Counted from the stretch's first letter, positions 1,607-19,878 are shown. The stretch: DNA of 32,000 nt from Candidatus Saccharimonadota bacterium (GCA_027925325.1 AP027133.1:390001-422000); one strand, 5' to 3'. A program made the numbers and translations. Notes: generated by a model from the letters alone, not told the origin.

Positions 1607-2812
1607 ATGAATTCTTTAGTAGATGTATTATTTGATACAAGTGGGGAAATACTTTATTTTATTTTTGGCTGATTATTTCTTGCAATTGTTATTTTTCAAT
1701 TTCTAAATTATTTCTTTGAAGATAAATGAGAAGTAATGATAGCTGAAAAGCAAAAAAGCGATATCTTAATCGGCGGATTATTTGGATTTATTCCTGGATG
1801 TGGCGGTACTATTTTTTTAATCAATCTTTTTAAAGAAGAAAAAATTGGTTTAGGGACTCTAGTTGCTTCTTTTATTACAACTGTTGGAGAGGTATCACTT
1901 ATCTTAATTGTGATTGATCCATTACTTTTAATTTATATCTCAGTCATAAGTTATATTGCTGCAATTATTGTTGGTTACATTGTTAAATATTCAAAAATTC
2001 AACAAAAATACAATATTTATGCAACTACTGAAACAAAAAAGAAAAAATTACATACACATGAAAAAGAATCAAAAAAAGCATTGCAGATATTTTCACTTAT
2101 TGATCATTGAATAATTCCAATTTTATTTACAATAATATTTTTAATTGTTTTTCCTTTTACAATAATTGCTTCTTTTATTCCGGATGGAAAGGAAAATTTT
2201 TCTAATTATCTATTAATTGTGGAGTGAATTTCAATTATCATTTTGCCAATTACAATTATTTATTATCTTATAAGAATTTATTTCATAAGAAATATTCATG
2301 ATGAAATCCATTCTGAAGAAAATATTCATAATAAAGGAAAAGAAGGAATAAAACATCAAATAGGTCATATTTCCTATAATTTAATTTTAATTTTAACTTG
2401 AGTTTCTATTACATTATTAATTGTTGATTTGGTAATTTATGCGATTATTTATTATTCAAATATTTATCAAAATATAAATGATTTACAAGATGATATCGAT
2501 GAAATTAAAAATGATTGATGATATTTAATTGTTCTTGTAATAATTGGAGCTTTAATCGGACTTATTCCAACTTGTGGTCCACAAATTGCCTTTACTCTAT
2601 TAATGATTGGAGAATTAGGAGACAATAATGCAATCGCTTTTGGTGGAATAAGTGCCCTTATTGCAAATTCTATCTCTCAAGATGGTCATGCAGGAATTGT
2701 CTATTTTACTTTTGATAAAAAAGGTTATGGAATTGTAAAATTAATTGAACTTGTTGCGGCAATTATATTTGGATTAATTTTTATTCCTTTGGATAAATAT
2801 ACAAGTTTATAA
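1607..2812 (+). CDS. Polytopic membrane permease (401 aa) with twin IPGCG / IPTCGP motifs; resembles the 'putative 10-TM heavy-metal/manganese transporter' (ArsP_2-like) family
   Basis: Frame +2 is open from ATG 1607 to TAA 2810-2812 when 7 in-frame TGA are read as Trp. This unites track ORFs 1736..2110 and 2603..2812. The protein is highly hydrophobic throughout. It has a two-fold repeat architecture, with GFIPGCGGTIF in the first half and GLIPTCGPQIAF in the second. The family name is from memory of these motifs. Confidence 0.7.
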
Positions 2813-2853
2813 TAAAAATATATTAAAATTTTTAAAAAAGGGAAGATATAAAA

Positions 2854-5520
2854 ATGAATAAAGCGAGAAATTATAATATAGAAAATGAATTTTGAGAAAT
2901 TAAAACTAATATAAATTTGGATTTAGAAGAAATAGAAAAATTTAAAAATAATCATATTTACAAAAATATTAATTATAATCAAAATCAATTTGTATATTTA
3001 AAGATGAATGAATATCAAATCAATCAATATGAAATAAGTATTTTAGATGAAAATAAAAATGTAATATTTAATTCTCCAATTAAATATTGAATCACCAAAA
3101 AAAAAATAAATAAAATGATTAGAATTTTGATAATAATTGGTATTTTAGAATTTAAAATAATTCCAAATAAAAAAATAAAAAAAGATGATCTAACAAAATG
3201 CATTTATATCCTTAATACTTCAAATAATTTAGATTTTTTATTTAAAAACTCATATTTAAATTTTAAAAAAAGATGTGAAGAAGATGATTTTTTTGAATTT
3301 TTTTCAGGAGAAAAAAAAGGATATAACAGTTTTATTAAAAATAATTTTTATGAAAATTTAAATAATAGGAACGAAAATTGAGAAATAAAAAATATCTCAT
3401 TTAATGAAAGTGCAAAAATAATAGATGAGCCAAATATTAATTTAAAAAGAAAATATCAAAATTTAGATAATAGAATATTAATTAAAGATTACTTAAATAA
3501 ATCATCAGAAAAATTTAATAAAAGTATAGGTCAAGAAAAATTTATTTTAAAAAAAAGAAAATATATTGAAAATATTAAAAATAATCATGTCTATTCAGAA
3601 TTAATAAATATTAATATCTTTTTAGAAAAAAAATATAAATTTTGAATTCCTTTAATACAAAGAAGTTATGTTTGAGGAGAAAATAAAATAAGTAATCTAG
3701 ATAAAATGATGGAAGAATTATTTCAAAATAACTCTCATTCAAATTCAAAAATTTTTTATTTAAATAATATTGTTTTAAAAAAAACCAAAATTGAAAATGA
3801 ATACGAATTTTATCATATATTGGACGGACAACAAAGAATAACTTCTTTGAGTTTAATATTATGTTCATTGTGAAATTTTATTTTTGAAATATTAGATAAA
3901 GATGAAAAATTTTTATCCAAAAATTATTATTTTAATTTATTAAATAAAATAAAAAAAATGAACTTTTTCTTTGATAAAAAAATAATTGATTTTAATAAAA
4001 TTTTAAATAAAAAAAATGATTATAAATATTCAAATTTATTCAATAAAATTTTAAAGAAAATAGAAGAACATTTAGATAAATATTCAAATATAGAAAAAAT
4101 AAAATTTCTTGAACAAATTTTAAAGAAAATATTGTTTAAAACCACTTTTTCTATAACAATAATAAGAGAAAAAGATAATAGCATTGATCAAAATAGACTT
4201 TTCGAATCCCTAAATACAATTTTTGTAAACTTAGATGAACTTGATTTATTTAAAATTGTATTAATGAAAAATATAAAAAATCTTATTAATGAAAATAAGA
4301 AAAATTTAGATGAAGAAACAAAAATAAATAATTTATGAAAAGAACATATTGAAGACAAATTTTATGAAAAAAATAAACGTGACGTAACATTTATTTCTAC
4401 TTTTTATGAATATGTTAAAAATAATTATTTTATTAATGAAAAAAATAATGTTGATTATCATGAATATAAAATGGAAATTTGAGAAAATTACGTTTCCAAA
4501 TATTTAAATTTTAATTTAGAAAATTGTAAATCTATCCAAAACTTTGAAGAAAAATTAAAAATTATATCTTATGAAATTAAATTTGTGAAATCATTTATTA
4601 AAACTCTTGATGAAAAAGATATTTCTAATTCTAATTTATTTTATATACAAGATTTTTTGTATTCTTTTAAGGGAAGAAAAGTATATATACCCTTAGTTAA
4701 AAAAATAATATCTATAATTTGAGAAAATGGTGAAAATCATTTTCAAAATTTTTCAATTGATAAAAAAAACAAAATACTAGAAAAAATTAACGAAACAAGA
4801 AAATGATTATTTGAAATTGAAAAATGTGAAGTTTATTTTCAATTAAATCTTTATAGAGGACAATCATTAACAAATATTATCAATTCAATTGCAAGCAAAA
4901 TAGATAATTTAGGAAAATTTGAAAAATTTAAAGAAATTATTAGAAGTAAAATAATGAATATATCCAATAATAATCAGAAATATAATATATTGTGAAGTGA
5001 ATTAGGAAAAGATTACAAGGATGGATTTAATATAAATTTAAAAACAAAAAAAATATTATTAAATAGAATAGTTAATAGCGAATTAATTGAAAAATATTAT
5101 GATGATTATAATTTCATAAATTGTCCTTCAATCGAGCATATAATGCCTCAAGATTTTCAAATATCTAAAAATAATTATATTATTGAAAATAAATGAAATT
5201 TTGAAAAAGATAAAAATGATTCTTTCATAAATATTGAAAATTATTCAAATGTTAAAGAATCAATAAAAAAAGAAATTCATGAATTGTATCTAAATAATAT
5301 AGGTAATTTAATAATTTTAGATAAAGATATAAATTCGAAAATTAAAAATCATTCATCTTTTTTTAAGAAAAAAAATGTCTATATTGAATATTTTAATAGA
5401 GATTTTAAATTAGATTTTAAAGAGCTTATTTCAAATAGTAAAAAATGATCTAATGATGAAATTATCGAGAGATCAAATCGAATAATGGAAAAAATTATTG
5501 AAATATATAAAGATAATTAA
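2854..5520 (+). CDS. DUF262 (ParB-like NTPase) + DUF1524 (His-Me/HNH-like nuclease) protein, GmrSD-type Type IV restriction-enzyme architecture, with a ~260-aa N-terminal extension (888 aa)
   Basis: Frame +1 was checked triplet by triplet. It is open for 2667 nt from ATG 2854 (preceded by aaaaGGGAAGatataaaa) to TAA 5518-5520, with 13 in-frame TGA and no TAA or TAG. It absorbs track ORFs 3115..3381 and 3958..4338. DUF262 motifs: W-IPLIQRSYVW (3643-3672), DGQQRITS (3823-3846) and LFESLNT..LDELDLFK (4198-4254). DUF1524 motifs: SIEHIMPQ (5128-5151) and NNIGNLIILDKDINSKIKNH (5293-5352). Confidence 0.85.
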
Positions 5521-6795
5521 ATGGAAAAAATAAATTTATATGAATCTTTTGCTGGTATCGGAAGTCAATATTTAGCTTTAAAAAGATTATCAAAAAAAAA
5601 TAAAAATTTTGATGTTAATGTTGTTGGAATTTGTGAATGAGATATTTATGCTTTATATTCATATATAAATATTCATTTTCCTGAAATTGAAATTAACGAA
5701 AAAACAAAAAATTATGAATCTTTAAAAAAATTTATTTATAATAATGATTTTTCAAGTGATTCAAAATCTGTTGCAAAAAAAGAGCATCTTTTAAAAGATG
5801 AAAAAAATTTAAAAGTAATTTCAAAAATAAAAAATTTTAGTGAAAAAGTTAAATTAAATCCAAATATTGAAAAATTAAGTGGAAAAGATTTAATAGATTT
5901 AAAGGTAAATTTTTTAACTTATTCTTTTCCATGCCAAGATCTATCAAATGCAGGGAAAAGAAAAGGATTTGAAAGAGGAAGTAATACAAGGAGTAGTTTA
6001 CTTTGAGAAATTGAAAGAATAATCGAGGAAATATTTAAAATTAATAAAAATAAATTACCAAAATATTTATTATTAGAAAATGTCGCCTCTTTATTAAATA
6101 AAAAAAATAAATCACTTTTCCTAGAGTGGATTGATTTTTTATCAAATAAGGGATATAAAACTTTTTATGATAAATTAAATGCAAAAGATTTTTCAATTCC
6201 ACAAAATAGAATTAGAACTTTTGCATTTAGTATTTTAAATTATGAAGGAGAATATAAAGAAAAAGAATCTCTAGATGAAATAATTAAGGATTTTAATTCA
6301 AAAAATAAAATAAAAAATAAAATAAAGCCTATGGAAAAATTTTTAAAAATTGATTATAAAAATGATAATTATTCACTAGAAGCAAGAGATTCATCACCAA
6401 ATCACACCAAGAGCAGAGAAAGAATGTGAAATGAATCAGAAATAAAATTATTAGAATATGATGAAAATGATATACCTATTCCAAATGAAAAACAAATATT
6501 TTCCGGAACATTAACAACAAAACAAGATAGGTGGCATAATGGTGGAATGATTCAATTACCAAAATCATTTAGAAAAAAATATTATGATAAATCTAAAAAT
6601 CCATTAAAAGAATATAGATATAGATTTTTAACACCTACAGAAAGTCTACTATTAATGGGATTTAAAGAAAATGAAATAGAAAATGTTATTAAAAGTATTA
6701 ATAATGAATTGAAAAGAAGACATGTTATTCATCAAGCAGGAAATACAATTGTAGTAGATATTTTAGAAAAAATATTTGAAATTTTTATTTTATAG
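5521..6795 (+). CDS. DNA (cytosine-5)-methyltransferase (424 aa)
   Basis: ATG 5521 immediately follows the TAA of the upstream gene. The frame contains 3 in-frame TGA and absorbs track ORF 6547..6795. Canonical m5C-MTase motifs are present: I FAGIGS (5548-5565), IV FPCQDLSNAGKRKG (5926-5967), VI ENV (6076-6084), VIII QNRIR (6202-6216), then RFLTPTESLLLMGF (6622-6663) and QAGNTIVV (6733-6756). A variable region between VIII and IX contains TLTTKQDRWHNGG. Confidence 0.9.
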
Positions 6796-6801
6796 ATATA
6801 T

Positions 6802-6853
6802 AAAGAGATATTAAAATAAATATACAAACTTATAATTATCTTAATATCTCTTT
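6802..6853. terminator. Inverted repeat between convergent genes (possible bidirectional terminator)
   Basis: AAAGAGATATTAA (6802-6814) is the perfect reverse complement of TTAATATCTCTTT (6841-6853). The 26-nt loop is long for a terminator, and the right arm overlaps the last codons of the minus-strand hydrolase gene. Confidence 0.4.
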
Positions 6854-7492
6854 TAATTCAGAATTAAGATTTAAATCAATATCTTTTATCCTAAATCCAC
6901 TTTGATAATGTCCGGGATAAATGAGATAATCGTTTTCTTTTGCCAAATGATAAATAAATTTTATTGATCTCATAAATTTCTTAAGATCTACTTTTAATTC
7001 TTTTTGATGCATTCCAATTCCTTTTAAAAATAATGTATCGCCGATAAAAATATCTTGATTATCAAAAAGATAAAAAGTAGATCCTGCTGTATGTCCGGAA
7101 ACAGGAATTATTTTAATATTGATTCCTAATAAATTAATTTTTTGTTTAGAATTTGCAGCAAAAGAAATTATATTATCTTTATTTTTTAATTTTCAATCCA
7201 AATTAGCAAAAAATGATCTATTAATTTTAGGGTCAAAGAGTCCTAAAAAATCGTTTTGATTGATATAGATTATTGGATTAAATTTTGCAATAATTTTATC
7301 TAAATCGATAACATGATCTAAATGATTGTGTGTTAATAAGACATATTTAATTTTAATATCATGATCGATACAATAATTAATTATTTTCTCTCCTGATGCA
7401 GCGGTATCAATAAGTATCGCTTCTTTATTTCGTTTGATATGAATGTAAGCGTTACTAAAATTAAATTTATTATTTTGAAAATTTTTAATCAT
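6836..7492 (-). CDS. MBL-fold metallo-hydrolase (218 aa)
   Basis: Track ORF 7193..7492 continues through TGA 7193-7195 to TAA 6836-6838. The HxHxDH motif is present (LLTHNHLDHV), followed by a downstream ..VSGHTAGS.. and ..GD.. pattern typical of metallo-beta-lactamase-fold and glyoxalase-II-like enzymes. A GGAGAG Shine-Dalgarno lies just upstream of ATG 7492. Confidence 0.85.
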
Positions 7493-8769: not shown

Positions 8770-9339
8770 TTATTTACAAATTTTATAAATGTATTTATAA
8801 ATTTTTTCGTATTTATTATTGTCTATATTTATAAGCGCTAATGTTTCTGTAAATAAAGCAATGTTAAATAAGACAAGAATAAAAATTAATTCGTTTTTAT
8901 TATTAATTTTTTGCTCAATAATTTTATTTTTCATCGCAAAGTTATTAAACGTTACATTTTTGCGAATGTAAAAATCATCTTTAATTCGTTCATAATTTTT
9001 AAATTGTTCAAAAATCAAGCGATGATCAAAATTTAATTTTTTGATTTTTTTAAGTGAATCTCGATATCGTCTTCTTGTAATTGGAGAACCAAAATAAGTT
9101 AAAAGTTTGATATCCGCTTTTGAATTTTTCATCTTATTTTTTTCTTTTATTCCTTCTAAAAAAAGATAAAAATTTTTGATAATATCTTCATCTATATCTT
9201 TACGCAAATTGATATTAGAATCTTTTCGATATTTAAAGTCTCATATCGCATAAAAAATACCAATAAAAGCCATTATTGATGTAACAATACTAAGTGTCGC
9301 AAGAAAAGTGCCGGTGAATCAAGCTGCAAAGCTATCCAT
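8770..9339 (-). CDS. Hypothetical membrane-anchored protein, paralogue 1 (189 aa)
   Basis: Track ORF 8770..9207 extends upstream through two TGA codons to ATG 9339, with GAGG 8 nt upstream. The N-terminus MDSFAAWFTGTFLATLSIVTSIMAFIGIFYAIW is a TM helix. By eye the protein is about 60% identical to the adjacent gene, with the same length and the same ..IYKxIYKIC terminus. Confidence 0.7.
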
Positions 9340-9353
9340 TAAATTACCCTCAT

Positions 9354-9923
9354 TTACATACAAATTTTGTAAATATGTTTATAAATTTTATCGTATTTTT
9401 CTTCGGTTATTTTTATAAATGAAAAACTTTCAGTAAATAAGGCGATATTTAATAATGTAAGAATAAAAATATTTTCCTTACGATCATTAATTTTTTCCTC
9501 AATAATTTTATTTTTTATGGCAAAATTATTAAACGTTACATTTTTACGAATATAAAAATCATCTTCGATCTGTTTATAATTACGAAACTGATCAAAGATA
9601 ATCTTTTGATCAAAATTTAATTTTTTAAATTTCTTAATTCGATCACGATATCTCTTTTTTGTAATCGGTGTCTTAAAATGAGTCAATAATTTAATATCAG
9701 AAGTAGATTCTTTCATTTTTTGTTGATTATTTAAATATTCAATAAAGAAATTAAAATTACTAATAATATCTTCGTGAATCTTTTTTCTTAAATTAATATT
9801 TGAATCTTTTTTATATTTAAATCCTCAAATTGCAAAAAAAACTCCCACAAAAATCATAATAGAAGAAGCGGCGCTAAAAAATAGCAAAAAAACGCCCCCA
9901 ATTCAAGCTAATGTACTTTCCAA
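9354..9923 (-). CDS. Hypothetical membrane-anchored protein, paralogue 2 (189 aa)
   Basis: Track ORF 9354..9716 extends upstream through two TGA codons to TTG 9923, preceded by aaAGAGGtaattt. The N-terminal TM helix is ESTLAWIGGVFLLFFSAASSIMIFVGVFFAIW. Blocks shared with paralogue 1 include DIKLLT.F..PIT..RYRD, KKLNFD, DDFYIRKNVTFNNFA.KNKIIE and NIALFTE. Confidence 0.7.
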
Positions 9924-10226: not shown

Positions 10227-10307
10227 CATCAAATTTTTTAATTTAATCACAAAAAGATCTAAATATAACTATTAAATTAAAAAATTATTTTAATTTATCT
10301 TTCAAAA

Positions 10308-10748
10308 TTATTCTTCGCTTTTTACTTTGATAATTTCTACTTTTCCGCCTGCATCTTCGATCGCTTTTCTTGCTGATTCTGAGAATTTATGTGCGGTAAC
10401 TGTATAAGCTTTTGTTAATTTTCCATCACCAAGAATTTTAAGATAACCATAATTTGATTTGATAATATTAGATTCAATTAAAATTTCTGGAGTAATTTTA
10501 TCACCTTTTACACGAACAAATTTATCAAGATTTAAAACTGTATATTCAATTTTATTGATGTTTTTAAATCCTCTTTTAGGAATTCGTTTATAAAGAGGAT
10601 TTTGTCCCCCTTCAAACCCAATCTTTTTTGAGTATCCTGCGCGTGATTTTTGTCCATTTTCACCACGTCCAGCTGTCTTATCACCACGTCCGACTCTCTT
10701 ATTCTTTTTTCTCGAACCAGGAGTTGATTTCATTTTATTTAATTCCAT
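10308..10748 (-). CDS. rplO: 50S ribosomal protein L15 (146 aa)
   Basis: MELNKMKSTPGSRKKNKRVGRG.. is the canonical L15 N-terminus. AAGGAG sits 7 nt upstream of ATG 10748. The track start at 10850 lies inside rpsE and is rejected. The gene overlaps the rpsE 3' end by 14 nt. Confidence 0.93.
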   Translation of the reverse strand: MELNKMKSTPGSRKKNKRVGRGDKTAGRGENGQKSRAGYSKKIGFEGGQNPLYKRIPKRGFKNINKIEYTVLNLDKFVRVKGDKITPEILIESNIIKSNYGYLKILGDGKLTKAYTVTAHKFSESARKAIEDAGGKVEIIKVKSEE

Positions 10749-11481
10749 CTTCTTGCTCCTTTTTATTGATTTTCTGTCCTCTATCTTGTGTAAATTTTGT
10801 TTTATTATTAAATCTACTTTTAACTTCTTCTTTAAGATGTAATTTTTCAATCTCTTCTTTTGTTCTTAAATTTTTAAGTCCATCTAAAGTTGCTAAGATT
10901 ACATTTTGCGGATTATTTGTTCCAAGATTTTTAGAATAAATATTTCTGATTCCAGCAAGTTCGACCACAGAACGAACGACATCGGAAGCGATAATTCCTT
11001 TTCCTTCTCCTGTCGGTTTAAGTAAGACTCTTGCTGCTCCATGATGTCCTATAATCTCATGCGAAATCGTATCTTCTTTTCCAACAATTTTAATTTTTAA
11101 TAAATTTTTCCGTGCTAATCTTGATGCTTTTTTGATTGCTTCTGGAACTTCGATATGTTTTGCAATTGCAAATCCAACATTTCCTTCATGATCACCAACA
11201 ACAACAAGAGCAGAAAATTTAAATCTTCTTCCCCCTTTTGTTACCTTAATAACTCTTTTAATATTGATAATTCGTTCCTCAAAATTATCTTTTTTATTAT
11301 TAAAATTTTTATTTGCTCCCGGTCTTAAAAAAGGATTAAAATTTTCTGGTAAAAAATCATCAGCTATTTTTTGCTGTGAAGTTTTGCTTTTAGAATCTAA
11401 ATCTTTATGTGCTGCTTTTGCTTGTTCTTTTTTAATCTCTTCTTTTGCTTTATTTTTTTCCAATTCTTTTGCTTGTTCCAT
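10735..11481 (-). CDS. rpsE: 30S ribosomal protein S5 with a K/E-rich N-terminal extension (248 aa)
   Basis: The core ERIINIKRVIKVTKGGRRFKFSALVVVGD..GNVGFA.AK..EVPEAI.KA is unmistakably S5. About 65 additional residues precede it and a basic tail follows it. Confidence 0.93.
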   Translation of the reverse strand: MEQAKELEKNKAKEEIKKEQAKAAHKDLDSKSKTSQQKIADDFLPENFNPFLRPGANKNFNNKKDNFEERIINIKRVIKVTKGGRRFKFSALVVVGDHEGNVGFAIAKHIEVPEAIKKASRLARKNLLKIKIVGKEDTISHEIIGHHGAARVLLKPTGEGKGIIASDVVRSVVELAGIRNIYSKNLGTNNPQNVILATLDGLKNLRTKEEIEKLHLKEEVKSRFNNKTKFTQDRGQKINKKEQEDGIK

Positions 11482-11495
11482 TTTATTTTTTATCC

Positions 11496-11846
11496 TTAAA
11501 TTTTAATGTTTTCGCTTCGCACACCATCAGCTAGTGATTTTACCTTTCCATGATAAATATAACCGTTACGATCAAATACAACCTGTTCAATCTTTAAAGA
11601 TTTTGCCTTTTTAGCGATATCTTTTCCGACTGCAAATGCACTTTTGATATTTTTAGCATCTAATTTTAAATCTTTTGTAGAAGAATAAGCGATCGTTTGG
11701 CCTTTAAGATCATCAATCAATTGAGCATAGATATTTTTATTTGATTTATAAACAGTTAAACGTGGAATTTTATCAGTTCCAAAGATTTTTTTACGTACAC
11801 GTAATTTTCGTTTTTTTCTTGCTTCTATTTTTTTATTTTTTGCCAT
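11496..11846 (-). CDS. rplR: 50S ribosomal protein L18 (116 aa)
   Basis: MAKNKKIEARKKRKLRVRKKI.G...PRL.VYKSNK.IYAQLIDD is the L18 signature. ATG 11846 is better spaced from the AGAAAGAG Shine-Dalgarno than the track's GTG 11858. Confidence 0.92.
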   Translation of the reverse strand: MAKNKKIEARKKRKLRVRKKIFGTDKIPRLTVYKSNKNIYAQLIDDLKGQTIAYSSTKDLKLDAKNIKSAFAVGKDIAKKAKSLKIEQVVFDRNGYIYHGKVKSLADGVRSENIKI

Positions 11847-11867
11847 TTTTAAAATCACTCTTTCTTT

Positions 11868-12407
11868 TTATTTAGAATTTGATTTTCCAGCTTTACGGAT
11901 AATCACTTCATTTTTATAGCGAATTCCTTTTCCAGCATAAGGTTCTGGTTTTTTAAGTAAACGAATCTTTGCTGCAAACTGACCAACTTGCTGTTTATCA
12001 ATTCCAGAAATCTTAAGTTGTGTTGGTTTTAAAACTTCTGCCTTAATTCCATCTGGAATTGATAGTGTTATTTTATGTGAATAACCTAAAGAAAAAGTTA
12101 ATTTATTATCAATAAAAGCGACATTATATCCAACACCGACAATTTCTAACTCTTTTGTAAAACCTTTTGTTACACCCTCAATCATTCCTTTAATTAAAGA
12201 AGCGTATGTTCCATGTAACATCTTTGTTTTTTTATTTTCATTGATTCTTTCTAAACTAATTCTATTATCAATTCTTGTAATCTTAATTGAATTTAAAAAA
12301 ATCTGTTCTAAGGTTCCAAGCGGACCTGTTACAACCATTTTCTTACCATCAAATTCAACCGTTACATTTTCGGGAATAATAATCTTTTGGTTTCCAATTC
12401 TTGACAT
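11868..12407 (-). CDS. rplF: 50S ribosomal protein L6 (179 aa)
   Basis: MSRIGNQKIIIPENVTV...GPLG is the L6 signature. AAGGAG lies upstream. Confidence 0.95.
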   Translation of the reverse strand: MSRIGNQKIIIPENVTVEFDGKKMVVTGPLGTLEQIFLNSIKITRIDNRISLERINENKKTKMLHGTYASLIKGMIEGVTKGFTKELEIVGVGYNVAFIDNKLTFSLGYSHKITLSIPDGIKAEVLKPTQLKISGIDKQQVGQFAAKIRLLKKPEPYAGKGIRYKNEVIIRKAGKSNSK

Positions 12408-12421
12408 TTAAAAACTCCTTA

Positions 12422-12814
12422 TCAAATATAAGCCATTATTTCGCCACCTAAATTGGCTTTTTTGGCAGCATGAGAAGTCATTATTCCTTTAGAAGTTGAA
12501 ACAATCGCTATTCCATATCCATTTAGCACTTCTGGTAATTTATTAGCTTCTTTATATACTCTAAGTCCCGGTTTTGAAATTCGTTTAAGACCGGTAATAA
12601 CACGATTTGTCCCCTTATATTTTAGAAAAATCTTGAAATTTTTTTCGCTTACTTTTTCACCGATAATTTTATAATCTAAAATATATCCTTCATCTAATAA
12701 AATTTTAATTATTTCTTCCTTTAATTTGGCATAAGGAACTAAAACCGATTTGTGTCTTCGCATATTTGCATTTCTGATTCGTGTCAATAAATCTGCAATG
12801 GGATCATTTGTCAT
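12422..12814 (-). CDS. rpsH: 30S ribosomal protein S8 (130 aa)
   Basis: [16 protein letters not shown] is the S8 signature, and the C-terminus GGEI.AY. is typical. Confidence 0.95.
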
Positions 12815-12835
12815 TTTTCTTACTCCTTTTTTAAT

Positions 12836-13021
12836 CTATCATGATGATTTTTTCACACCAGGAATTTCACCATTTGCTGCCATTTCACGGAAACAGATCC
12901 GACAAACACCATATTTACGCATATATCCATGTGTACGACCACAAATTTTGCATCTATTTTTTGCTCTTGTTGAAAATTTTGCATTCTTTTCCTGTTTTGC
13001 TATTTGTGCTTTTCTAGCCAT
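12836..13021 (-). CDS. rpsN: 30S ribosomal protein S14, short zinc-ribbon (type Z) form (61 aa)
   Basis: The protein contains ..[23 protein letters not shown].. (CxxC...CxxC). The track ORF stops at TGA 12839-12841, which encodes the conserved C-terminal Trp (..KKSSW). The true stop is TAG 12836-12838. Confidence 0.93.
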
Positions 13022-13040
13022 ATTTTAAATACTCCTTTAA

Positions 13041-13595
13041 TTATCTTTTTGCAAAAGGCATTTTAAACTTTTTAAGTAAAAGAAAGGCTTTTTGATCATC
13101 ACTTGTTGAGGTTACGATTGTAATATCCATTCCCTTCATCAATCTTACTTTATCAAGTTCGATTTCAGGGAATATAATAATTTCATTTACACCCAAAGTA
13201 TAATTTCCTCTTCCATCAAATGAGGTTGGTTTTAAACCACGAAAATCTCTAATTCTAGGTAATGCAAAATTTATCAATTTATCTAAAAAGTCATACATTT
13301 TTTCTTTTCGTAAAGTTATCTTAACACCGATTGGCATTCCTTCACGAATTTTAAAAGAGGCATTTGATTTTTTGGCATAAGTGATAATCGGTGTTTGACC
13401 GGTAATGATTGCCAATTCTTTTTTTGCTTCTGTTACTAATGACTTATCATTTACGGCTTTACCAAGACCGATATTAATGACAATTTTTTCAAGATGAGGA
13501 ACAGCCATAATTGTTTTTAAGTTTAATTCTTGTTTTAATTGCTGTTTAATTTCAGTATCATATTTTTTATGTAAAAATGTCTTTTCTTTTGCCAT
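13041..13595 (-). CDS. rplE: 50S ribosomal protein L5 (184 aa)
   Basis: Typical L5 blocks are present, including ..NIGLG.A..D.. and PRIRDFRGL....FDGRGNY.LG. The start overlaps the rplX stop (TAATG). Confidence 0.95.
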   Translation of the reverse strand: MAKEKTFLHKKYDTEIKQQLKQELNLKTIMAVPHLEKIVINIGLGKAVNDKSLVTEAKKELAIITGQTPIITYAKKSNASFKIREGMPIGVKITLRKEKMYDFLDKLINFALPRIRDFRGLKPTSFDGRGNYTLGVNEIIIFPEIELDKVRLMKGMDITIVTSTSDDQKAFLLLKKFKMPFAKR

Positions 13596-13918
13596 TAAAT
13601 CTCATCTCCTGTTTTTTTGGCGATTCTCTTCTTTGTTTTTTTACCACGAGAGGTTACGTATTTGTAACCGATTCTTGTTCCTTTTGCTTCTTTTTTTGTT
13701 CCGATATCATACATTACATTTGAAACATCGATCGGGGCTTCTTTTTTAAATATTCCCCCTTCTTGATCTTTTTGTGATGGTTTTACATGGAATGTACGAA
13801 CATTTACATCTTCGACAATTACTTTATTTGTTTTTGCAAAAACTTCTTTAATAAGACCGGATTTACCCTTATCTTTTCCTGAGATTACGATAACACGATC
13901 ACCTTTTTTTAATTTCAT
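13595..13918 (-). CDS. rplX: 50S ribosomal protein L24 (107 aa)
   Basis: MKLKKGDRVIVISGKDKGKSG is the L24 signature. AGGAGG sits 5 nt before ATG 13918; the track start at 13921 is only 2 nt from it. Confidence 0.93.
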   Translation of the reverse strand: MKLKKGDRVIVISGKDKGKSGLIKEVFAKTNKVIVEDVNVRTFHVKPSQKDQEGGIFKKEAPIDVSNVMYDIGTKKEAKGTRIGYKYVTSRGKKTKKRIAKKTGDEI

Positions 13919-13927
13919 CATAACCTC

Positions 13928-14296
13928 CTATAATACCTCTTGCCCAAGAGAGATAATTTTTTGATAACCTTTTTCTCTAAGTTCTCTTGCGATTGGACCA
14001 AAAATTCTTGTTCCTCTTGGTTCTTTATTTTCTTTAATAAGAACGGCGGCATTATCATCAAAACGTAGATATTCTCCGGTTTGTCTTTTAATACCATGTT
14101 TTGTTCTTACGATTACTGCTTTTACAACTTGACCTTTTTTGATTTGGGCATTTGGTTGGGCTTTTTTAACCGTGGCCACAACGATATCACCGATTGAAGA
14201 AAATTTCTTTAAAGATCCACCTAGATTACGAATGACTAGTAATTCTTTAGCACCGGTATTATCGGCTACTTTTAACCTTGTTTCGGTTTGAATCAT
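13928..14296 (-). CDS. rplN: 50S ribosomal protein L14 (122 aa)
   Basis: [17 protein letters not shown] is the universal L14 N-terminus. The track start at 14323 lies inside rpsQ and is rejected. Confidence 0.95.
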
Positions 14297-14297
14297 C

Positions 14298-14561
14298 TTA
14301 CTTACCATCCTTTGTTTCAACAATTTTTACCAAACGAAAATACTTTGTCTTTGAATAAGGTTTTGTTTCCATAATTTGGACCTTATCGCCAATTTTTGCC
14401 TTTTCATCTTGATCATGAACATGAAACTTTTTTGAATATTTATATCTTTTTCCATAAAGTTTATGTGCACGATAAGTATCAACTTTTACAGTGATTGTTT
14501 TATCCATAGCAGTAGAAATAACTATTCCTTGATAATTTTTTCTTCTATTTGTCCGCAACAT
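14298..14561 (-). CDS. rpsQ: 30S ribosomal protein S17 (87 aa)
   Basis: ..[23 protein letters not shown]......KLYGKR...SKKF.VHD is the S17 signature. A GGAGAG Shine-Dalgarno lies upstream. The gene overlaps the rpmC 3' end by 17 nt. Confidence 0.93.
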
Positions 14562-14844
14562 TAGTCTCTCCTTTATTTTTCTTTAAATTTTTATCTTCAA
14601 TTTTTACCTTTGTCTGATTTTTTAAAGAAAGATCTTTTTCGACAATATTAATATTATGTTTTCTTTCATTTATAACGGTAAAAAGTTTTGCAATATCTTT
14701 TTTTGTCTGTTTAATCAGATGAGTTTCATTTAATTGTCCGGTTGCATTTTCAAATCTTAGAGCTAATAATTTTCCTTTAAGATCAGAGACTAATTTTAAT
14801 AATTCTTGATTATTTTTCTTACGTAATTCTTCAATCTTATACAT
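14545..14844 (-). CDS. rpmC: 50S ribosomal protein L29 with a C-terminal extension (99 aa)
   Basis: ..[52 protein letters not shown]. is the L29 core of about 65 aa. A K/N-rich tail of about 35 aa follows. Confidence 0.9.
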
Positions 14845-15262
14845 TTTCTAACTCCTCACCTTTTGTAACGATTTTACATTTTACAGGTAATTTATGCATT
14901 CCTAATCTTAATGCTTCTAATGCTTGTTCGGTTGTAACTTCATCTAATTCAAAAAGAATCATTCCTTTTTTTACAACAGCAGCATAATGATCAACATTAC
15001 CTTTTCCTTTTCCCATTCTTACTTCCAATGGTTTCTTAGTAATCGGTAATTGCGGAAAAATTCTAATTCAAACCTTTCCATTTCTCTTTAAATATCTTGT
15101 GATTGCGATCCGTGCTGCTTCAATCTGTCTTTCGGTAATATAATTGCCTTCAAGTGATTGTAATCCATATTTTCCAAAAGCGATTTTTGTTCCCCGTTTT
15201 GCTTTTCCTTCATATGAAATTTTATGTGGTTTACGATATTTTTGTTTTTTTGGAGTTAGCAT
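14837..15262 (-). CDS. rplP: 50S ribosomal protein L16 (141 aa)
   Basis: Track ORFs 15068..15262 and 14837..15028 are joined through TGA 15068-15070. The junction reads ..[29 protein letters not shown].., the conserved L16 block with its invariant Trp. Confidence 0.95.
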
Positions 15263-16023
15263 TATTTATCTCCTCTTTGAAGATCTTTTTCGCTATTTTG
15301 GTCTGTTTTTCTAATTATTTTACGATCGGAAGGAAAACGATCACGTTTAATTTTAACTTTATCTTTCTCTTTACGATTTTGTAAAATTTCTCCACGCGAA
15401 ATTCAAACCTTTACACCTAAAATTCCATATGTTGTTTTTGCTTTTGTTTTGGCATAATCAATATCATATCTCAATGTTTGCAAAGGAACTTGTCCTTCAA
15501 GATAGCCTTCTGTTCGTGCCATATCAACACCATTTAAACGACCTGAGACCTGTGTTTTAATTCCCTTTGCACCGTTTCGCATCACTCTTCTTATCACTCT
15601 TTTTTGAGCAATTCGAAAAGGAACACGATTTTCAAGTTGACTAGCGATTTCGTTTGCGATAATTGTCGCATCTAAATCGGGCTTTTTAACTTCTTTTACA
15701 TCTAGAATGATTCTTTTCTTTTGAATTTTATTATGTAACAATTTTAAAAGATCAAGTTGAATTTTTTTGATATTTGATCCTTCTTGTCCAAGTACAAGTC
15801 CTGGTTTTGAAGTATTAATCGTAATTCTTACTTCTTTTGTAGTACGATCAATTTCAACCACAGATAAAGATCATTTTTTAAAATATTTCTCAAAGTAATT
15901 TCTAATTTTACGATCTTCAACCACTCATTCTGTTCATTGTTTGTTATCTTTTGCAAAATATCTTGATTTTCAATCACGTACAATTCCTAAACGCATCCCA
16001 TTTGGATTGGCTTTTTGTCCCAT
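15262..16023 (-). CDS. rpsC: 30S ribosomal protein S3 with a basic C-terminal tail (253 aa)
   Basis: ATG 16023 follows AAGGAG and gives [24 protein letters not shown].. with four TGA=Trp codons in the N-terminal ~55 residues. The frame continues through track ORF 15403..15861 and TGA 15403-15405 to TAA 15262-15264, which overlaps the rplP ATG (TAATG). Confidence 0.93.
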
Positions 16024-16036
16024 ATTCTCGATCTCC

Positions 16037-16405
16037 TTATTTATTTATTTTGTTACCTTTTTTAGTTATTTTAAAATCATCTGATAAAACTATCTCTAGA
16101 TGTGCTGTTCTTTTTAATTTTTTATCAACACGACCCTTAGCACGAGGACGAAAACGCTTGATTGTTGGTCCTTCATTTGCAACAGCTTTAATAATTATTA
16201 AATCTTCATTCAACATTCCATGATTTTCTGTTGCATTTGCAACAGCTTGATTAAGAACTTTTTTTAATAAAGGGGCTGCTTTTTTATTTGTCGTATCTAA
16301 AATTGAAAAAGCTTGATCGACTTTTTTATATCTTATAAGTTCACAAACAAGATTAGCTTTCTGTGCAGAAATGCGAATATTTTTAGTTAACGCTCTTGCT
16401 TCCAT
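16037..16405 (-). CDS. rplV: 50S ribosomal protein L22 (122 aa)
   Basis: MEARALTKNIRISAQKANLVCELIR and ..GPT.KRFRPRAKGR are L22 signatures. Confidence 0.94.
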   Translation of the reverse strand: MEARALTKNIRISAQKANLVCELIRYKKVDQAFSILDTTNKKAAPLLKKVLNQAVANATENHGMLNEDLIIIKAVANEGPTIKRFRPRAKGRVDKKLKRTAHLEIVLSDDFKITKKGNKINK

Positions 16406-16420
16406 TATTGCATTTGATTC

Positions 16421-16696
16421 CTATCTTTTTTTCTTTTTATCTTCGCCATGACCACCAAATTTACGTGTCGGTGCAAATTCACCTAATTTATGACCGACCA
16501 TATCTTCGATTATATAGACATTGATAAATTCTTTTCCATTATGGACTTGAAATGTTAAACCGACAAAATTAGGAAAAATTGTTGATCTACGTGATCAGGT
16601 TTTGATTGGTTTTTTTGATTTTGTTGTAATTGCATTTTCAACTTTTTTAGCAAGGTGCTCATCGATAAATGGTCCTTTTTTTAATGAACGACTCAT
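16421..16696 (-). CDS. rpsS: 30S ribosomal protein S19 (91 aa); absent from the ORF track
   Basis: Hand translation from ATG 16696 gives [91 protein letters not shown], ending at TAG 16421-16423. One in-frame TGA (16595-16597) falls at the conserved Trp. Confidence 0.95.
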
Positions 16697-16705
16697 AATC
16701 TTAAA

Positions 16706-17554
16706 TTATTTCTTACCCTTTCTTGTTCTTATAATATATTTATTTGACTGTTTATTTTTTTTCCGTGTTTTAACCCCTAGGGCTTTTTTTCCTCAAGGCG
16801 TCATCGGTGATTTTCTTCCGATTGGAGATTTTCCTTCTCCCCCTCCATGCGGATGATCATTTGGATTCATCGCTGAACCTCGAACCGTTGGTCTTTTTCC
16901 TTTATGGCGATTACGACCGGCTTTTCCAATTCGTTCAAGATTATGGCTAGAATTAGATACAACACCGATTGTTGCACGATTTCTGGCAAGAATTTTACGC
17001 ATTTCACCTGAAGTTAAACGAACAATCACATATCTTTCTGTCTCATCTTTTCCTAATACTTGCGCACTTGCGCCTGCTGAGCGAACAAATTCGCCCCCTT
17101 TTCCTGGTTTAAGTTCGATATTATGAATAAATGTCCCTTCTGGAATATTTTCTAAAGGAAGAGCATTTCCAATAGCAATTTCAGCATCTTTTCCTGAAAA
17201 AATCTTATCACCTACTTTAAGATTTTCCGGGGCGATAATATATCTTTTTTCACCATCGATATAATTTATAAGGGCAATAAAAGAAGTACGATTTGGATCA
17301 TATTCAATTGAAACAACTTTTCCAGAAATACCATCTTTATTACGCTTAAAATCAATAATTCGATATTTTTGTTTTACTCCTCCCCCTTTATGCCTTACAG
17401 TTATTTTTCCTGTATTGTTTCTTCCGGCCTTATTTACTTTTTTTACAGTAAGTGATTTTTCCGGTTTTGTTTTAGTAAGTGATTTTTTATAATCAATTAC
17501 AGATGAATTACGGCGTCCAGGAGAAGTTGGTTTATATTTTTTAATTTCTGACAT
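16706..17554 (-). CDS. rplB: 50S ribosomal protein L2 (282 aa)
   Basis: [16 protein letters not shown].. is the start, with AGGTGA 5 nt before ATG 17554. The track ORF ends at TGA 16793-16795, which is the conserved Trp of ..[21 protein letters not shown]... The frame continues to TAA 16706-16708. Confidence 0.95.
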
Positions 17555-17567
17555 ATTAATCACCTAA

Positions 17568-17963
17568 CTATTTAATATCTTTCTCTGCTTCTTTCATTAA
17601 TTTTTCAGTGTTAATAATTTTTAGACCTTTTTTATTAGATTCTTTTTTATCTTTTTCAACACCTTCTGCTCCATAAATTGGGATTGCTCCTGCACTTAAA
17701 ATTACATATGCTTTTTTGTAAGATTTTTTAAATCCTTCGTAACGTCCCATTTTTTTTGCTTTTGCTTTTACTTTTGCAATATTTACTTTTTTAACCTTAG
17801 CATCAGATTTTGCAAAAATATATTCAACAGCTCTTTTTACATCTTCTCTTGTAGCATTAGGATGAACCTCTAAAATATAAGTATTATGATCAGCTGTAAG
17901 TCTTGAATTTTTTTCGGTAATTATCGGTTTAATAATCACATCATTGATATTAAGTTTTTTCAT
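17568..17963 (-). CDS. rplW: 50S ribosomal protein L23 with a C-terminal extension (131 aa)
   Basis: ..DVIIKPIITEKNSRL.......ILEVHPNATREDVKRAVE.IF...V.KVNI is the L23 core. A K/E-rich tail of about 35 aa follows. Confidence 0.9.
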   Translation of the reverse strand: MKKLNINDVIIKPIITEKNSRLTADHNTYILEVHPNATREDVKRAVEYIFAKSDAKVKKVNIAKVKAKAKKMGRYEGFKKSYKKAYVILSAGAIPIYGAEGVEKDKKESNKKGLKIINTEKLMKEAEKDIK

Positions 17964-18603
17964 TCATAAGTCCCTTCTCAACCGATTTAATTGCATCTTT
18001 TGTAAGTAAAATTTTAGTTGCTTTTAAAAGTTTATTAAGCATCACATTTGTATTTAAATTAACAGAGATATTTTTGATATTTCTTCCTGAAAGATAAGCA
18101 TTTTTCTGTTCATTTTTCTCAACTGAAGGAATCACAAATAAAACCTTTTCTTTTTCAATTGCAAGATTTTTAAGCATTATCTTAAAATCTTTGGTAGAAG
18201 GAGTTTTAAAATCTAAATTATCGACAACGATAATTTTATTTTCTTTTAATAATTGTGATCAACCTGATTTTAAAGCTAATTTTTTAACTTTTTTGTTAAT
18301 TTTAAGAGTATAGTTTTTTTCTGCTTTTGGTCCAAAAACAACCCCTCCACCTCTTCATTGTGGGGAACGAATTGAACCCTGTCTAGCTCGACCTGTTCCT
18401 TTTTGTTTTCAAGGTTTTCTTCCTCCCCCTGAAACATCTGAACGAGTCTTGGTACTATGTGTTCCTTGTCTTAATGAAGCGCGTTCAACAAGAATTAAAT
18501 CATACATTGCCTGTTCATGAGGAGTAATATCAAAAACTTCTTCTGCCAATTCTAATGTATCGACTTTTTTTCCTAAAACATTTAAAACATCGATTGTTGC
18601 CAT
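17950..18603 (-). CDS. rplD: 50S ribosomal protein L4 (217 aa)
   Basis: Track ORFs 18409..18603 and 17950..18177 are joined through TGA codons at 18409-18411, 18355-18357 and 18259-18261. The junctions read ..[35 protein letters not shown].., the hallmark L4 block. I checked the frame for TAA and TAG and found none. Confidence 0.95.
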
Positions 18604-19553
18604 TATTTTTGCTCCTCGCTCTCTTTATTCTGATTTCGATTTTTTCTTGCATTCATTAAAGCTTCTACTTTTGCAATTTCTGATTTTAATTCTTGATTAG
18701 ACATTTTTAAAGCTTTAGCTTTATTAATTTTTAATAATTCTGCTTTTTCAAGTAATATTTTGTGTTCTTCTAAATCTTTTTGATGTTTGATTGTTGCTTG
18801 TTCAATCTCAACTTTCATCTGTTCAATTGACATAGAGGATGTTAATTTTGCGCCAACCTTTTTTCCTTCTTCAAAAAGTTGATTTTTAATTCTAACTTCT
18901 TCTACATCAACTAATTTAATAAGATTATTAATTTTAGTTCCTTTTTTAATTGCTTCTTTAATTACAATAAAAGATTTATTCGGACCTGGGATTGATCCTT
19001 TAATTAAAAAAACATTTAATTTACGATCAAAAGAAATAATTTCAAGATTTTGCATCGTTACTTGTTGATGCCCCATATGTCCAGGCATCTTCTTACTTTT
19101 TTTAACAGTGCTTCTAATATCACCAGATGAACCGGTAACACGATGAGATTTTGAACCATGACTCATCGGTCCTCTTGATTGATTATGTCTTTTAATAGTA
19201 CCTTGAAATCCTTTTCCTTTTGAGATTCCAGTTACATCTACTAAAGATCCATCAACAAAGATATCACCATTAATTAAGTCACCTCGTTCAAAACCATCCA
19301 TATCTCTAATTTCATGAATAAAATACTTAGGACTAGTATTAGCTTTTTTAGCTTCACCGATCATTGATTTGATTGATTTATTAATTTTCTTATCTTCTAA
19401 TCCTAATTTAAGTGCTTTATATCCATCTTTTGCTAGTGTTTTTACTTGAAGCACAACATTTGGTTTTATTTCAACAACAGTAACAGGAATTGCTTTTCCT
19501 TCTTCTGAAAAAACAGTTGTCATTCCTGCTTTACGGCCTAAAATACCTTTCAT
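18603..19553 (-). CDS. rplC: 50S ribosomal protein L3 with a ~100-aa K/E-rich C-terminal extension (316 aa)
   Basis: [15 protein letters not shown].. and ..[25 protein letters not shown] are L3 signatures. After about residue 210 the sequence becomes a charged, heptad-like tail (..[54 protein letters not shown]..). Confidence 0.93.
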
Positions 19554-19563
19554 TTTAAACCTC

Positions 19564-19878
19564 TTAATCTACTTTGACTTCTATCGCCACGCCGATAGGA
19601 AGTTCAATTCGATTTAATTTATCAATAGTGTCTGTTGTTGCTTTTTTAATTCCAATTAAGCGTTTATGTGTTCTAAGCTCAAATTGTTCACGAGAATCTT
19701 TATTAACATGAACAGATCTTAAAACTGTAAAGATTTCTCTTCTTGTCGGAAGAGGAACAGGACCATAAATTTCTGCTCCTGCATCTTTTAAAACCTTAAT
19801 AATTTTCTTTGCTGAAATATCTATTAATTTCGCATCATAAGATTTTAATTTAATTTTGATTGCCTTATCTTTTTGCAT
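19564..19878 (-). CDS. rpsJ: 30S ribosomal protein S10 (104 aa)
   Basis: [25 protein letters not shown].......GA.I.GP.PLPT is the S10 signature. AAGGAG is 10 nt upstream of ATG 19878. The track start at 19887 is only 1 nt from the Shine-Dalgarno. Confidence 0.93.

Follow-up and report, generated by a model that had tools for sequence, protein, structure and literature searches.

The 32,000-nucleotide (nt) stretch of DNA analysed here (AP027133.1:390001-422000, referred to as the window, with positions counted from its first base) carries between positions 2854 and 6795 two abutting genes, of which gene 1 encodes a protein of the GmrSD nuclease family and gene 2 a C5-cytosine DNA methyltransferase (MTase). 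The product of gene 1 is identical to NCBI protein HPPSJP_3470, encoded on the 606,194-bp contig of a metagenome-assembled genome of 'Candidatus Hepatoplasma scabrum'; this Mollicute was obtained from isopod (Porcellio scaber) hepatopancreas (PMC10928387). We found that the two genes represent a conserved, co-evolving two-gene module in which the adjacency of nuclease and MTase is not incidental, and which has not previously been described as a unit. The features of the pair and its flanks are collected in Table 1.

Under the standard code (table 11) the plus strand of 2854-6795 offers only three open reading frames (ORFs) of at least 60 amino acids (aa), at exactly the positions listed in a preliminary description of this DNA (3115-3381, 3958-4338 and 6547-6795), and the minus strand offers one (3611-3868). 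When read with table 4, gene 1 is open for 2667 nt from the ATG at 2854 to the TAA at 5518-5520, with 13 TGA, no TGG and no internal TAA or TAG codons, and gene 2 starts, as had been claimed, on the very next base, running for 1275 nt from the ATG at 5521 to the TAG at 6793-6795 with 3 TGA and 2 TGG. A frame of this length was said to be unlikely by chance, and the figures agree: approximately 87 TAA or TAG codons are expected in the 888 codons of gene 1 from the local base composition, the probability of finding none is about 10^-39.6, and the remaining two frames across the gene contain 89 and 107. TGA codons in both genes align with invariant tryptophans of standard-code homologues, for example the W of the QRxYxW motif, and TGA is read as tryptophan window-wide (76 TGA versus 5 TGG in 17 genes). 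This is the ordinary Mollicute code and no peculiarity of the locus. The term 'TGA-masked operon' used in the preliminary description therefore holds for the two intact table-4 ORFs but not for the masking, which is ordinary code-4 usage; both genes are in GenBank, annotated as 'hypothetical protein' (HPPSJP_3470) and 'cytosine-specific methyltransferase'.

Table 1. Coordinates of the gene pair, its flanks and the gene trio that accompanies it in other loci
Feature	Position	Strand	Remarks
Gene 1, 888-aa long-form GmrSD-family protein (predicted ParB-like NTPase + His-Me/HNH nuclease)	2854..5520	+	table 4; Pfam
N-terminal region, aa 1-256	2854..3621	+	without known domain; conserved 'I-x-x-L-x-x-x-G' helix at about aa 89-101
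GmrSD_N/DUF262 (PF03235), aa 257-467	3622..4254	+	E = 1.3e-18; 68.3 bits vs 33.2-bit gathering cut-off
IPLIQRSYVW	3646-3675	+	GmrSD_N motif, gene 1
DGQQR (NTPase), aa 324-328	3823-3837	+	GmrSD_N motif, gene 1
LFESLNT	4198-4218	+	GmrSD_N motif, gene 1
YRGQSL, aa 667-672, linker	4852..4869	+	invariant in 11-sequence alignment A3; slight variation in Mollicute orthologues
GmrSD_C/DUF1524 (PF07510) His-Me finger, aa 710-879	4981..5490	+	E = 6.2e-11; 42.8 bits vs 23-bit cut-off
SIEHIMPQ	5128-5151	+	E761/H762 at 5134-5139
GNLIILD	5302-5322	+	GmrSD_C motif; N818
INSKIKN	5329-5349	+	GmrSD_C motif; N827
Gene 2, 424-aa C5-cytosine DNA MTase	5521..6795	+	start codon abuts gene 1 stop (TAAATG)
Motif I FAGIGS	5548-5565	+	gene 2
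Motif IV FPCQDLS	5926-5946	+	gene 2
Motif VI ENV	6076-6084	+	gene 2
Motif VIII QNRIR	6202-6216	+	gene 2
Target-recognition region	6397..6549	+	gene 2; PNHTKSR 6397-6417; TLTTKQDRWHNGGM 6508-6549
Motif IX RFLTPTE	6622-6642	+	gene 2
Motif X GNTI	6739-6750	+	gene 2
Intergenic leader, 41 nt, 5' of gene 1	2813..2853	+	AT-rich promoter-like stretch; GGGAAG Shine-Dalgarno-like, 9 nt before ATG; read from sequence
AT-rich hairpin	6802..6853		between convergent genes; ViennaRNA: outer stem 13 pairs, two inner 4-pair stems, dG -15.4 kcal/mol
ArsP_2-type permease, 10 transmembrane segments	1607-2812	+	upstream flank of pair
Metallo-beta-lactamase-fold hydrolase	6836-7492	-	convergent downstream flank of pair
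PDC-M33 trio	L001 3593-6832; L007 11633-14967		loci carrying the pair

The DUF262 plus DUF1524 architecture proposed for gene 1 in the preliminary description was recovered with both domains above their cut-offs, the quoted motifs lie where it placed them, and both the DGQQR motif and the (D/E)H...N...N nuclease residues that are diagnostic of the GmrSD family are present. The QR.Y.W and DGQQR motifs, as well as nuclease residues E761, H762, N818 and N827, are invariant in 11- and 54-sequence alignments, the nuclease residues across the clade described below. Against a 12-member clade profile that includes it, gene 1 scored 585 bits (E = 1.7e-177), compared with 135 bits for a mixed GmrSD profile. 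The alignment of relatives of 820-950 aa begins at about residue 80, and residues 1-256 gave no Pfam match at E <= 0.01. Gene 1 is not a generic GmrSD but one of a separate long-form clade, whose members have an N-terminal region of their own of approximately 200-280 aa. An AlphaFold model of the Hepatoplasma protein was unusable (predicted local distance difference test, pLDDT, 40), and we used instead the model of orthologue P0271 (pLDDT 87.4, with N-terminal residues 11-160 above 90; identifiers prefixed P and L are our own for proteins and loci). A whole-chain Foldseek comparison of this model with the PDB returned no match attributable to the N-terminal domain.

Gene 2 matched PF00145 at 149.6 bits (E = 1.8e-43, above the gathering score) and TIGR00675 at 129.6 bits against a cut-off of 100.65 bits, and it contains the complete canonical set of 5-methylcytosine (m5C) MTase motifs (I, IV, VI, VIII, IX and X) that had been claimed for it. 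Its closest solved relative is the C5-MTase of PDB entries 4DKJ/8C56 (E ~9e-42), to which residues 4-281 (catalytic) and 366-420 (motifs IX-X) align while the target-recognition domain (TRD, residues ~281-366) does not. We take 4DKJ/8C56 to be M.MpeI of Mycoplasma penetrans, a CpG-specific enzyme of the M.SssI lineage, and RAST labels the Mesoplasma florum orthologue, mfl304, 'CPG DNA methylase'. We set aside CpG specificity, which the RAST label implies, as unsupported for gene 2, because its TRD does not align with that of the CpG enzyme and the window has no CpG depletion (observed/expected ratio 1.02).

Recurrence and co-divergence of the pair

Further members of the clade were sought by an exhaustive HMMER run and then with a six-sequence nuclease profile. 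This profile retrieved 10 proteins at 604-1038 bits, with the next at 186 bits (a generic GmrSD of ~685 aa), and from this fall the MTase-linked nucleases are taken to be a discrete clade. An MTase of one subfamily abuts the nuclease in all 15 loci examined, comprising the window and 14 further long-form GmrSD loci that could be placed in context, so that homologues of gene 1 are recurrently found beside an MTase and the adjacency is not the unique and incidental one that the preliminary description had envisaged as a possible outcome. The nearest MTase homologues (P0003, P0004, P0005, P0007, P0014, P0023 and P0037) each have a neighbour of 775-866 aa with both GmrSD_N and GmrSD_C domains; their loci are L001, L002, L003/L004, L005, L007/L008, Spiroplasma diminutum CP005076 (L094) and M. 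florum L1 AE017263 (L095), and the closest homologues lie on unrelated contigs and are 36-49% identical to gene 2. For the long-form nucleases P0273-P0276 and P0279, the gene immediately upstream is in every case an MTase, represented by a PF00145 match or by an ORF cut at the contig edge; the two edge-cut ORFs were confirmed as MTases by hidden Markov model (HMM; 5.7e-139 and 3.5e-44).

As background we used 80 generic GmrSD loci from species-representative genomes and 79 viral-contig loci among the matches listed, all with generic DUF262 proteins. An m5C MTase was found within ~6 kb in none of the 80 genome loci and in 2 of the 79 viral loci, both weakly (E ~1e-4); the MTase HMM was sensitive enough to recover the unrelated Sau3AI-type mfl308 at 3.6e-34. 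Across 12 pairs the junction gap ranges from -20 to +28 nt, and the pairwise distances of nuclease and MTase correlate strongly (Mantel r = 0.95, p = 1e-4; Spearman 0.76). Chance adjacency was ruled out by the generic-locus controls, the junction gaps and this co-divergence. The nuclease evolves much faster than its partner (25% identity between S. diminutum and M. florum, against 54% for the MTase), and the identity of gene 1 to the remaining paired orthologues is no more than 22-27%. Five Mollicute loci (the window, L003, L005, S. diminutum and M. florum) hold the pair only, and their GmrSD proteins are mutually 20-25% identical, which indicates long persistence of the pair in reduced genomes. 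The usual order elsewhere is MTase followed by GmrSD, and this is reversed in the window. The closest partial relatives, P0122 (41% identical to gene 1) and P0009 (49% identical to gene 2), each come from a 2,213-bp NCBI contig, and to judge from the lengths this 2.2-kb relative probably shares the GmrSD-MTase order of the window.

The M. florum nuclease, mfl305 (L095 7397-9904), carries at residues ~109-115 a HEPN-like R-x5-H motif, RNNDGGH, which neither the Hepatoplasma nor the S. diminutum protein has, and the N-terminal regions of the Mollicute long-form proteins are therefore not all one domain.

Eight standard-code loci combine the pair with three more genes of ~590, 283 and 250 aa, which correspond to the PADLOC candidate system PDC-M33A/B/C; PDC-M33A has GHKL-like IREIIQNSLDA and GSFGIGKN motifs and PDC-M33C is DUF6339. 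MTase, GmrSD and M33ABC lie on one strand in L001, L007 and L090-L093, whereas MTase-GmrSD is divergent from M33ABC in L002 and L089. The pair is thus adjacent and co-oriented in three arrangements: the window order, the one-strand cassette and the divergent cassette. When metagenomes were scanned with an M33A profile (L175-L254), 52 of 80 loci with the ordinary trio had an m5C MTase in front of it, in most cases co-oriented with M33A and abutting it. Only 2 of the 80 had a GmrSD there; these two are a single duplicated locus with a generic GmrSD. L227/L230, where a GmrSD follows the trio, was considered for clade membership and rejected, its protein being a generic GmrSD (620 bits with the generic profile, 191 with the clade profile).

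The MTases of ordinary trios are mostly 23-28% identical to those of the pair and lack its two TRD motifs. The signature PN(H/K/R)TxSR ... T(L/I)TTKQDRWxNxG was found complete in 12 of 12 GmrSD-linked MTases and in 0 of 12 MTases preceding ordinary trios, and the shared motifs suggest one common specificity among the 12 linked enzymes. The subfamily is broad, since 86 of the 120 top-scoring MTase homologues, Bacillota included, carry the signature. From the arrangements and the different subfamily of the trio MTases we conclude that a specific MTase and a long GmrSD travel as a unit, placed before the trio or divergent from it. The table-4 ORFs of the window gave no match to M33A, M33B or M33C profiles at E <= 1. 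A literature search for DUF6339 or PDC-M33 returned no matches, and the trio together with its C5-MTase looks like an undescribed four-gene methylation-linked system. A protein with DUF8426 and AAA_5 domains is encoded 3' of the five-gene cassette in L091 (7025-9640), L092 (7101-9011) and L093 (6532-8448), and in one of these it is followed by an RE_LlaJI gene, a context that resembles McrB/LlaJI-like GTPase restriction.

Composition and surroundings of the Hepatoplasma pair

The pair lies between a permease gene and a convergent hydrolase gene, as had been noted before. The leader upstream of gene 1 may hold its promoter and Shine-Dalgarno sequence, roles that we infer only from reading the sequence, and a promoter scan of the AT-rich window was uninformative (45 sites against 53.8 expected). 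The hairpin between the convergent genes is likely to be a bidirectional terminator closing the two-gene unit, judged by its predicted fold; a scan for GC-rich terminators did not detect it.

With a G+C content of 16.0% in gene 1 and 20.9% in gene 2, against 24% for the window as a whole, no other part of the window is as AT-rich as the pair. The stronger A/T bias ascribed to it in the preliminary description is thus real but not unique to it, because other accessory genes in the window have 17.7-19.5% G+C. The housekeeping genes used for that contrast belong to a ribosomal-protein operon of the S10-spc type (~10300-19900, minus strand, 24-35% G+C). Also in the window are two tandem overlapping paralogues of ~190 aa on the minus strand (8770-9363 and 9354-9923), each with one N-terminal hydrophobic segment and sharing the near-identical motifs AIW.FKY.KDSNINLRK and YIRKNVTFNNFA. 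On the plus strand, three paralogues with 'IYNP ... DPDD' (20106-21077, 21086-22081 and 27359-28228) were annotated by eye as family-2-like glycosyltransferases, beside a gene (26065-27357) whose N-terminal GGGYVG suggests a nucleotide-sugar dehydrogenase; at 17.7-18.8% G+C they are as AT-rich as the pair and look like a surface-polysaccharide locus.

The extreme composition of the pair in a reduced symbiont genome would fit an alternative reading for Hepatoplasma alone, in which its copy is a relic of an island gained by horizontal transfer, now decaying and without function, even if orthologues elsewhere work. The low identity of gene 1 to its paired orthologues (22-27%) and to its nearest partial relative (41%) and its failed structure prediction (pLDDT 40) would fit such a relic, as would the absence of the pair from the published defence inventory of 'Ca. 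H. scabrum', which lists CRISPR-Cas9 only and has dashes for all Type I and Type II entries (Table 4 of PMC10928387). Both ORFs, however, are full length over 3.9 kb with no frameshift or premature TAA or TAG, where ~87 would be expected in gene 1 alone; they retain QRxYxW, DGQQR, YRGQSL, the EH, N and N nuclease residues, MTase motifs I, IV, VI, VIII, IX and X and both TRD motifs; and the TAAATG junction, suited to translational coupling, is intact. We consider decay highly improbable.

Kinship with DndI and SspE and proposed coupling to methylation

When compared with PDB sequences, the clade profile matched DndI (9JFL) best at 2.8e-26, followed by an 818-aa DUF262 protein (20yv, 4.6e-23), SspE (4.8e-16) and BrxU (1.2e-7). 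Foldseek gave a similar order for the P0271 model: DndI 9JFL came first (1.4e-11; template modelling score 0.53 on the target), then SspE (2e-10 to 7e-8), with BrxU last (2.6e-5). Among PADLOC families, HEC-06 and 'Orf5' ranked first, followed by SspE, with HEC-05/BrxU marginal. By profile and predicted fold the nuclease resembles the modification-sensing proteins DndI and SspE more closely than BrxU, a Type IV enzyme, and 'Type IV' is therefore not the default reading. Both DndI and SspE belong to the GmrSD family and recognise self by a modification of host DNA that is coupled to control of NTPase and nuclease: SspE requires the mark for activation and is harmless without it, whereas DndI is constitutively active, is released from self DNA via the mark and is toxic to modification-deficient cells (PMC11662687, PMC13251355).

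DndI, from the IscS-DndBCDE-DndI system of Salmonella (PDB 9JFL), resembles gene 1 in having a DUF262 NTPase with DGQQR and a C-terminal HNH domain, and it is the best PDB match over the whole core. It is likewise encoded beside genes that modify host DNA, the modification serving self/non-self discrimination (PMC11662687). It differs in that its phosphorothioate mark is made by five Dnd/IscS proteins and not, like m5C, by a single MTase, and in its size (596 aa, without the N-terminal region). SspE (SspABCD-SspE; 6JIV, 7DRS) belongs to the same two-domain family; in its case NTPase stimulation and nuclease licensing both depend on the host modification. Unlike the clade, SspE senses phosphorothioate and lacks an MTase partner, and its sequence similarity is confined to the DUF262 core, which starts at the N-terminus in SspE (residue 14, 6JIV) and at residue 56 in the 818-aa 20yv chain. 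The long-form clade shares with SspE and DndI the placement of a DUF262-DUF1524 protein beside a host-DNA-modifying gene, since an MTase abuts in every member examined. No phosphorothioation genes (dndBCDE or sspABCD) accompany the pair between the flanking permease and hydrolase genes, where the nuclease has the C5-MTase as its only partner; dnd and ssp genes were not searched for systematically elsewhere in the window.

HEC-06, a PADLOC family embedded in Hma, is the best PADLOC match of the less biased orthologues (2.7e-44 for P0271) and also lies within methylase-containing loci, but is ~560 aa long without the N-terminal region, and the Hma locus encodes a helicase, a methylase and an ATPase and not a Dcm-type MTase. 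Defence by HEC-06 requires DGQQR and EH residues equivalent to those of gene 1 (preprint 10.1101/2024.01.29.577857). The only near-precedent for the pair is DCM5 of M. hominis, a C5-MTase-like protein with a 979-aa protein carrying a C-terminal DUF1524 downstream; its authors suggest a role in defence with the HNH neighbour (PMC10305163). DCM5 is ~256 aa long, lacks FxGxG and recognisable motifs VIII and IX, was judged probably inactive, and no methylation motif was found for it (PMC10305163).

Taken with the recurrence of the pair, these relationships lead us to favour, with moderate confidence, a reading in which the two genes form one co-inherited, methylation-coupled GmrSD-family defence module, an m5C counterpart of SspE and DndI, and probably one directed against phage. 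The MTase would write m5C at a fixed short motif of host DNA, and gene 1 would be the effector that reads this mark, separates self from non-self and nicks or cuts unmarked DNA. In an SspE-like mode the mark would license NTPase and nuclease, and the nuclease would be harmless without it.

The alternative that gene 1 is a true Type IV enzyme directed at hypermodified phage DNA (5-hydroxymethylcytosine, its glucosylated form or similar) and ignores plain m5C has several observations in its favour. The link with the MTase would then be genetic only: the MTase would either serve to modify DNA for another system, such as the PDC-M33 trio, in which the GmrSD gene had become embedded, or be a defence in its own right that complements the nuclease, and Mollicutes would have lost the trio and kept the pair by inertia. 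Both Pfam families take their name from GmrSD, a Type IV enzyme, and Eco94GmrSD and BrxU (7P9K) are NTP-stimulated HNH nucleases with the same domains and catalytic motifs as gene 1. GmrSD-like genes are embedded in BREX, Hma and Type I restriction-modification (R-M) loci, where they are thought to be complementary. The one-strand five-gene loci (L001, L007, L091, L092 and others) place the GmrSD exactly between the MTase and PDC-M33A, ordinary trios are usually preceded by an MTase (52/80), the M. florum MTase knock-out is viable and HEC-06 works alone. However, the MTase of long-form GmrSD loci is always of one subfamily and not that of ordinary trios; in the rearranged cassettes (L002 and L089) it accompanies the GmrSD instead of the trio; five Mollicute loci that have diverged deeply hold the pair without a trio; and the adjacency in Hepatoplasma survives an inversion of gene order. 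A Type IV enzyme should have no cognate MTase, yet one is adjacent in 15 of 15 loci against essentially none of the 159 generic loci. Known GmrSD/BrxU enzymes stand alone or within BREX or Type I loci, attack modified cytosines and have no known dedicated MTase partner, and BrxU is the weakest solved relative of the clade by profile and by fold. In published surveys, Type I R-M genes but not Dcm-type MTases are enriched around GmrSD genes (PMC4619093), and the contexts of GmrSD-like genes comprise Type I R-M, BREX and Hma without a Dcm partnership (PMC4619093; preprint 10.1101/2024.01.29.577857). We regard this Type IV alternative as unlikely.

Published transposon data from M. florum bear on the mode of coupling. 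Baby et al. (2018) list mfl304 ('CPG DNA methylase') and mfl305 ('RloF; DUF1524; DUF262') as non-core genes interrupted by Tn5 (PMC5893858). The insertions in the nuclease gene mfl305 are at 350,986 and 351,769 (PMC5893858), whereas the neighbouring conventional restriction endonuclease and MTase genes, mfl307 and mfl308, have no insertion (miss probabilities 0.008 and 0.014; PMC5893858). In a classical Type II system the MTase would be indispensable while the nuclease is present; mfl304 carries a mid-gene insertion, whereas none was recovered in mfl307 or mfl308. A viable mfl304::Tn5 mutant is unexpected under strict protective-methylation logic and could reflect an SspE-like mode, a polar effect or simply a lack of coupling; a polar effect on mfl305 is possible because the MTase gene lies upstream of the nuclease gene. 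It is likewise unlike DndI, which is toxic in modification-deficient cells, and would match SspE, which is nontoxic without its mark. We lean towards SspE-like licensing and away from DndI-like or classical R-M logic, where the mark would shield the host from a nuclease that is dangerous at all times. The three options put forward in the preliminary description were classical R-M, a Type IV enzyme with a co-inherited methylase, and a methylation-sensing module. All are unproven; the third fits best, and the first is weakened because the M. florum MTase orthologue tolerates a mid-gene Tn5 insertion. M. florum has a second C5-MTase gene, mfl308, beside the pair; if its product is active, indiscriminate attack on m5C DNA by the nuclease would destroy the host's own DNA.

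As a tentative extension, which we think possible rather than likely, the pair could be the first system of methylation-licensed restriction: m5C would be sensed by the long-form GmrSD, possibly through its N-terminal domain, the NTPase would be switched on and the HNH domain would nick the unmethylated invader, just as in the use that SspE makes of phosphorothioate. The mark would then do more than block the nuclease. If true, this would explain how the MTase can be knocked out without cell death, and the GmrSD scaffold would have been wired independently to two chemically unrelated self marks. The N-terminal domain is, as a matter of speculation, a candidate m5C reader or MTase-docking domain.

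Docking is central to another alternative, a Type III-like holoenzyme in which the MTase TRD recognises the site and recruits the NTPase-nuclease through the N-terminal domain, unmethylated sites triggering NTP-dependent communication and cleavage and methylated sites not. Such an enzyme would follow the classical protective scheme of R-M, though assembled from unusual components. The ParB-like fold serves as an NTP-dependent DNA clamp in other contexts. The strict 1:1 linkage and co-divergence, the abutting or overlapping genes that suggest stoichiometric co-translation, the clade-specific N-terminal domain that could serve docking, and the conservation of the MTase TRD across the clade alongside a fast-evolving nuclease are all consistent with such an enzyme. 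Viability after mid-gene insertion in mfl304, as against the intact state of the adjacent conventional R-M pair, and the lack of any motif avoidance in the 32-kb window speak against it, and we judge it decidedly improbable.

Several points weigh against the coupled module that we favour. M. florum L1 remained viable with Tn5 at 349,478 (nt 630 of the 1,368-nt mfl304) and mfl305 intact downstream (PMC5893858 Data Sets S1 and S4). In E. coli, HEC-06 provides defence by itself, with no MTase dedicated to it (preprint 10.1101/2024.01.29.577857), and GmrSD-like genes are 'embedded' in methylase-containing systems without known functional coupling. Co-divergence would also be expected from mere physical linkage. 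We found no methylation or restriction footprint in CpG observed/expected ratios or 4-mer palindromes (nothing beyond z = -2.8), in a 32-kb window of low power. The statements on fold rest on P0271, an orthologue 24% identical to the gene 1 protein. Finally, both the reading of the mark by the nuclease and the direction of the coupling are inferences.

The surroundings of the pair in other Mollicutes include further defence genes. A MutH-domain gene lies just 3' of the pair in M. florum (L095 10563-13213) and S. diminutum (L094 12046-13260), and in these two the pair therefore sits in a small defence island. The M. florum gene is annotated as an LlaKR2I-type restriction endonuclease and is followed by the second C5-MTase gene, mfl308, with no Tn5 in either. 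Directly upstream of the S. diminutum pair is a large helicase-nuclease gene (L094 2906-5941; RE_NgoFVII + SNF2/ResIII), and the pair of 'Mollicutes bacterium LVI A0039' (L007 1333-7807) likewise has large helicase-nuclease genes directly upstream (PLDc_2 + ResIII + DUF3427, and SNF2), again a defence-island context.

Implications

The module occurs in cultivable, tractable near-minimal bacteria (M. florum mfl304/mfl305 and S. diminutum), and its mechanism is therefore directly testable. In Mollicutes used as synthetic-biology chassis the pair genes may hinder transformation or genome transplantation. For 'Ca. H. scabrum' the pair revises a published defence inventory without any R-M system, and the PDC-M33 trio is, as a by-product, a second and apparently undescribed m5C-MTase-linked system. 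GmrSD nucleases are at present divided between Type IV enzymes, whose target is modified DNA, and SspE and DndI, which are coupled to phosphorothioate; a clade in obligate pairing and co-evolution with one C5-MTase subfamily would add a methylation-coupled branch to the family, and such a branch would blur the boundary between 'modification-dependent' and 'modification-protected' restriction.

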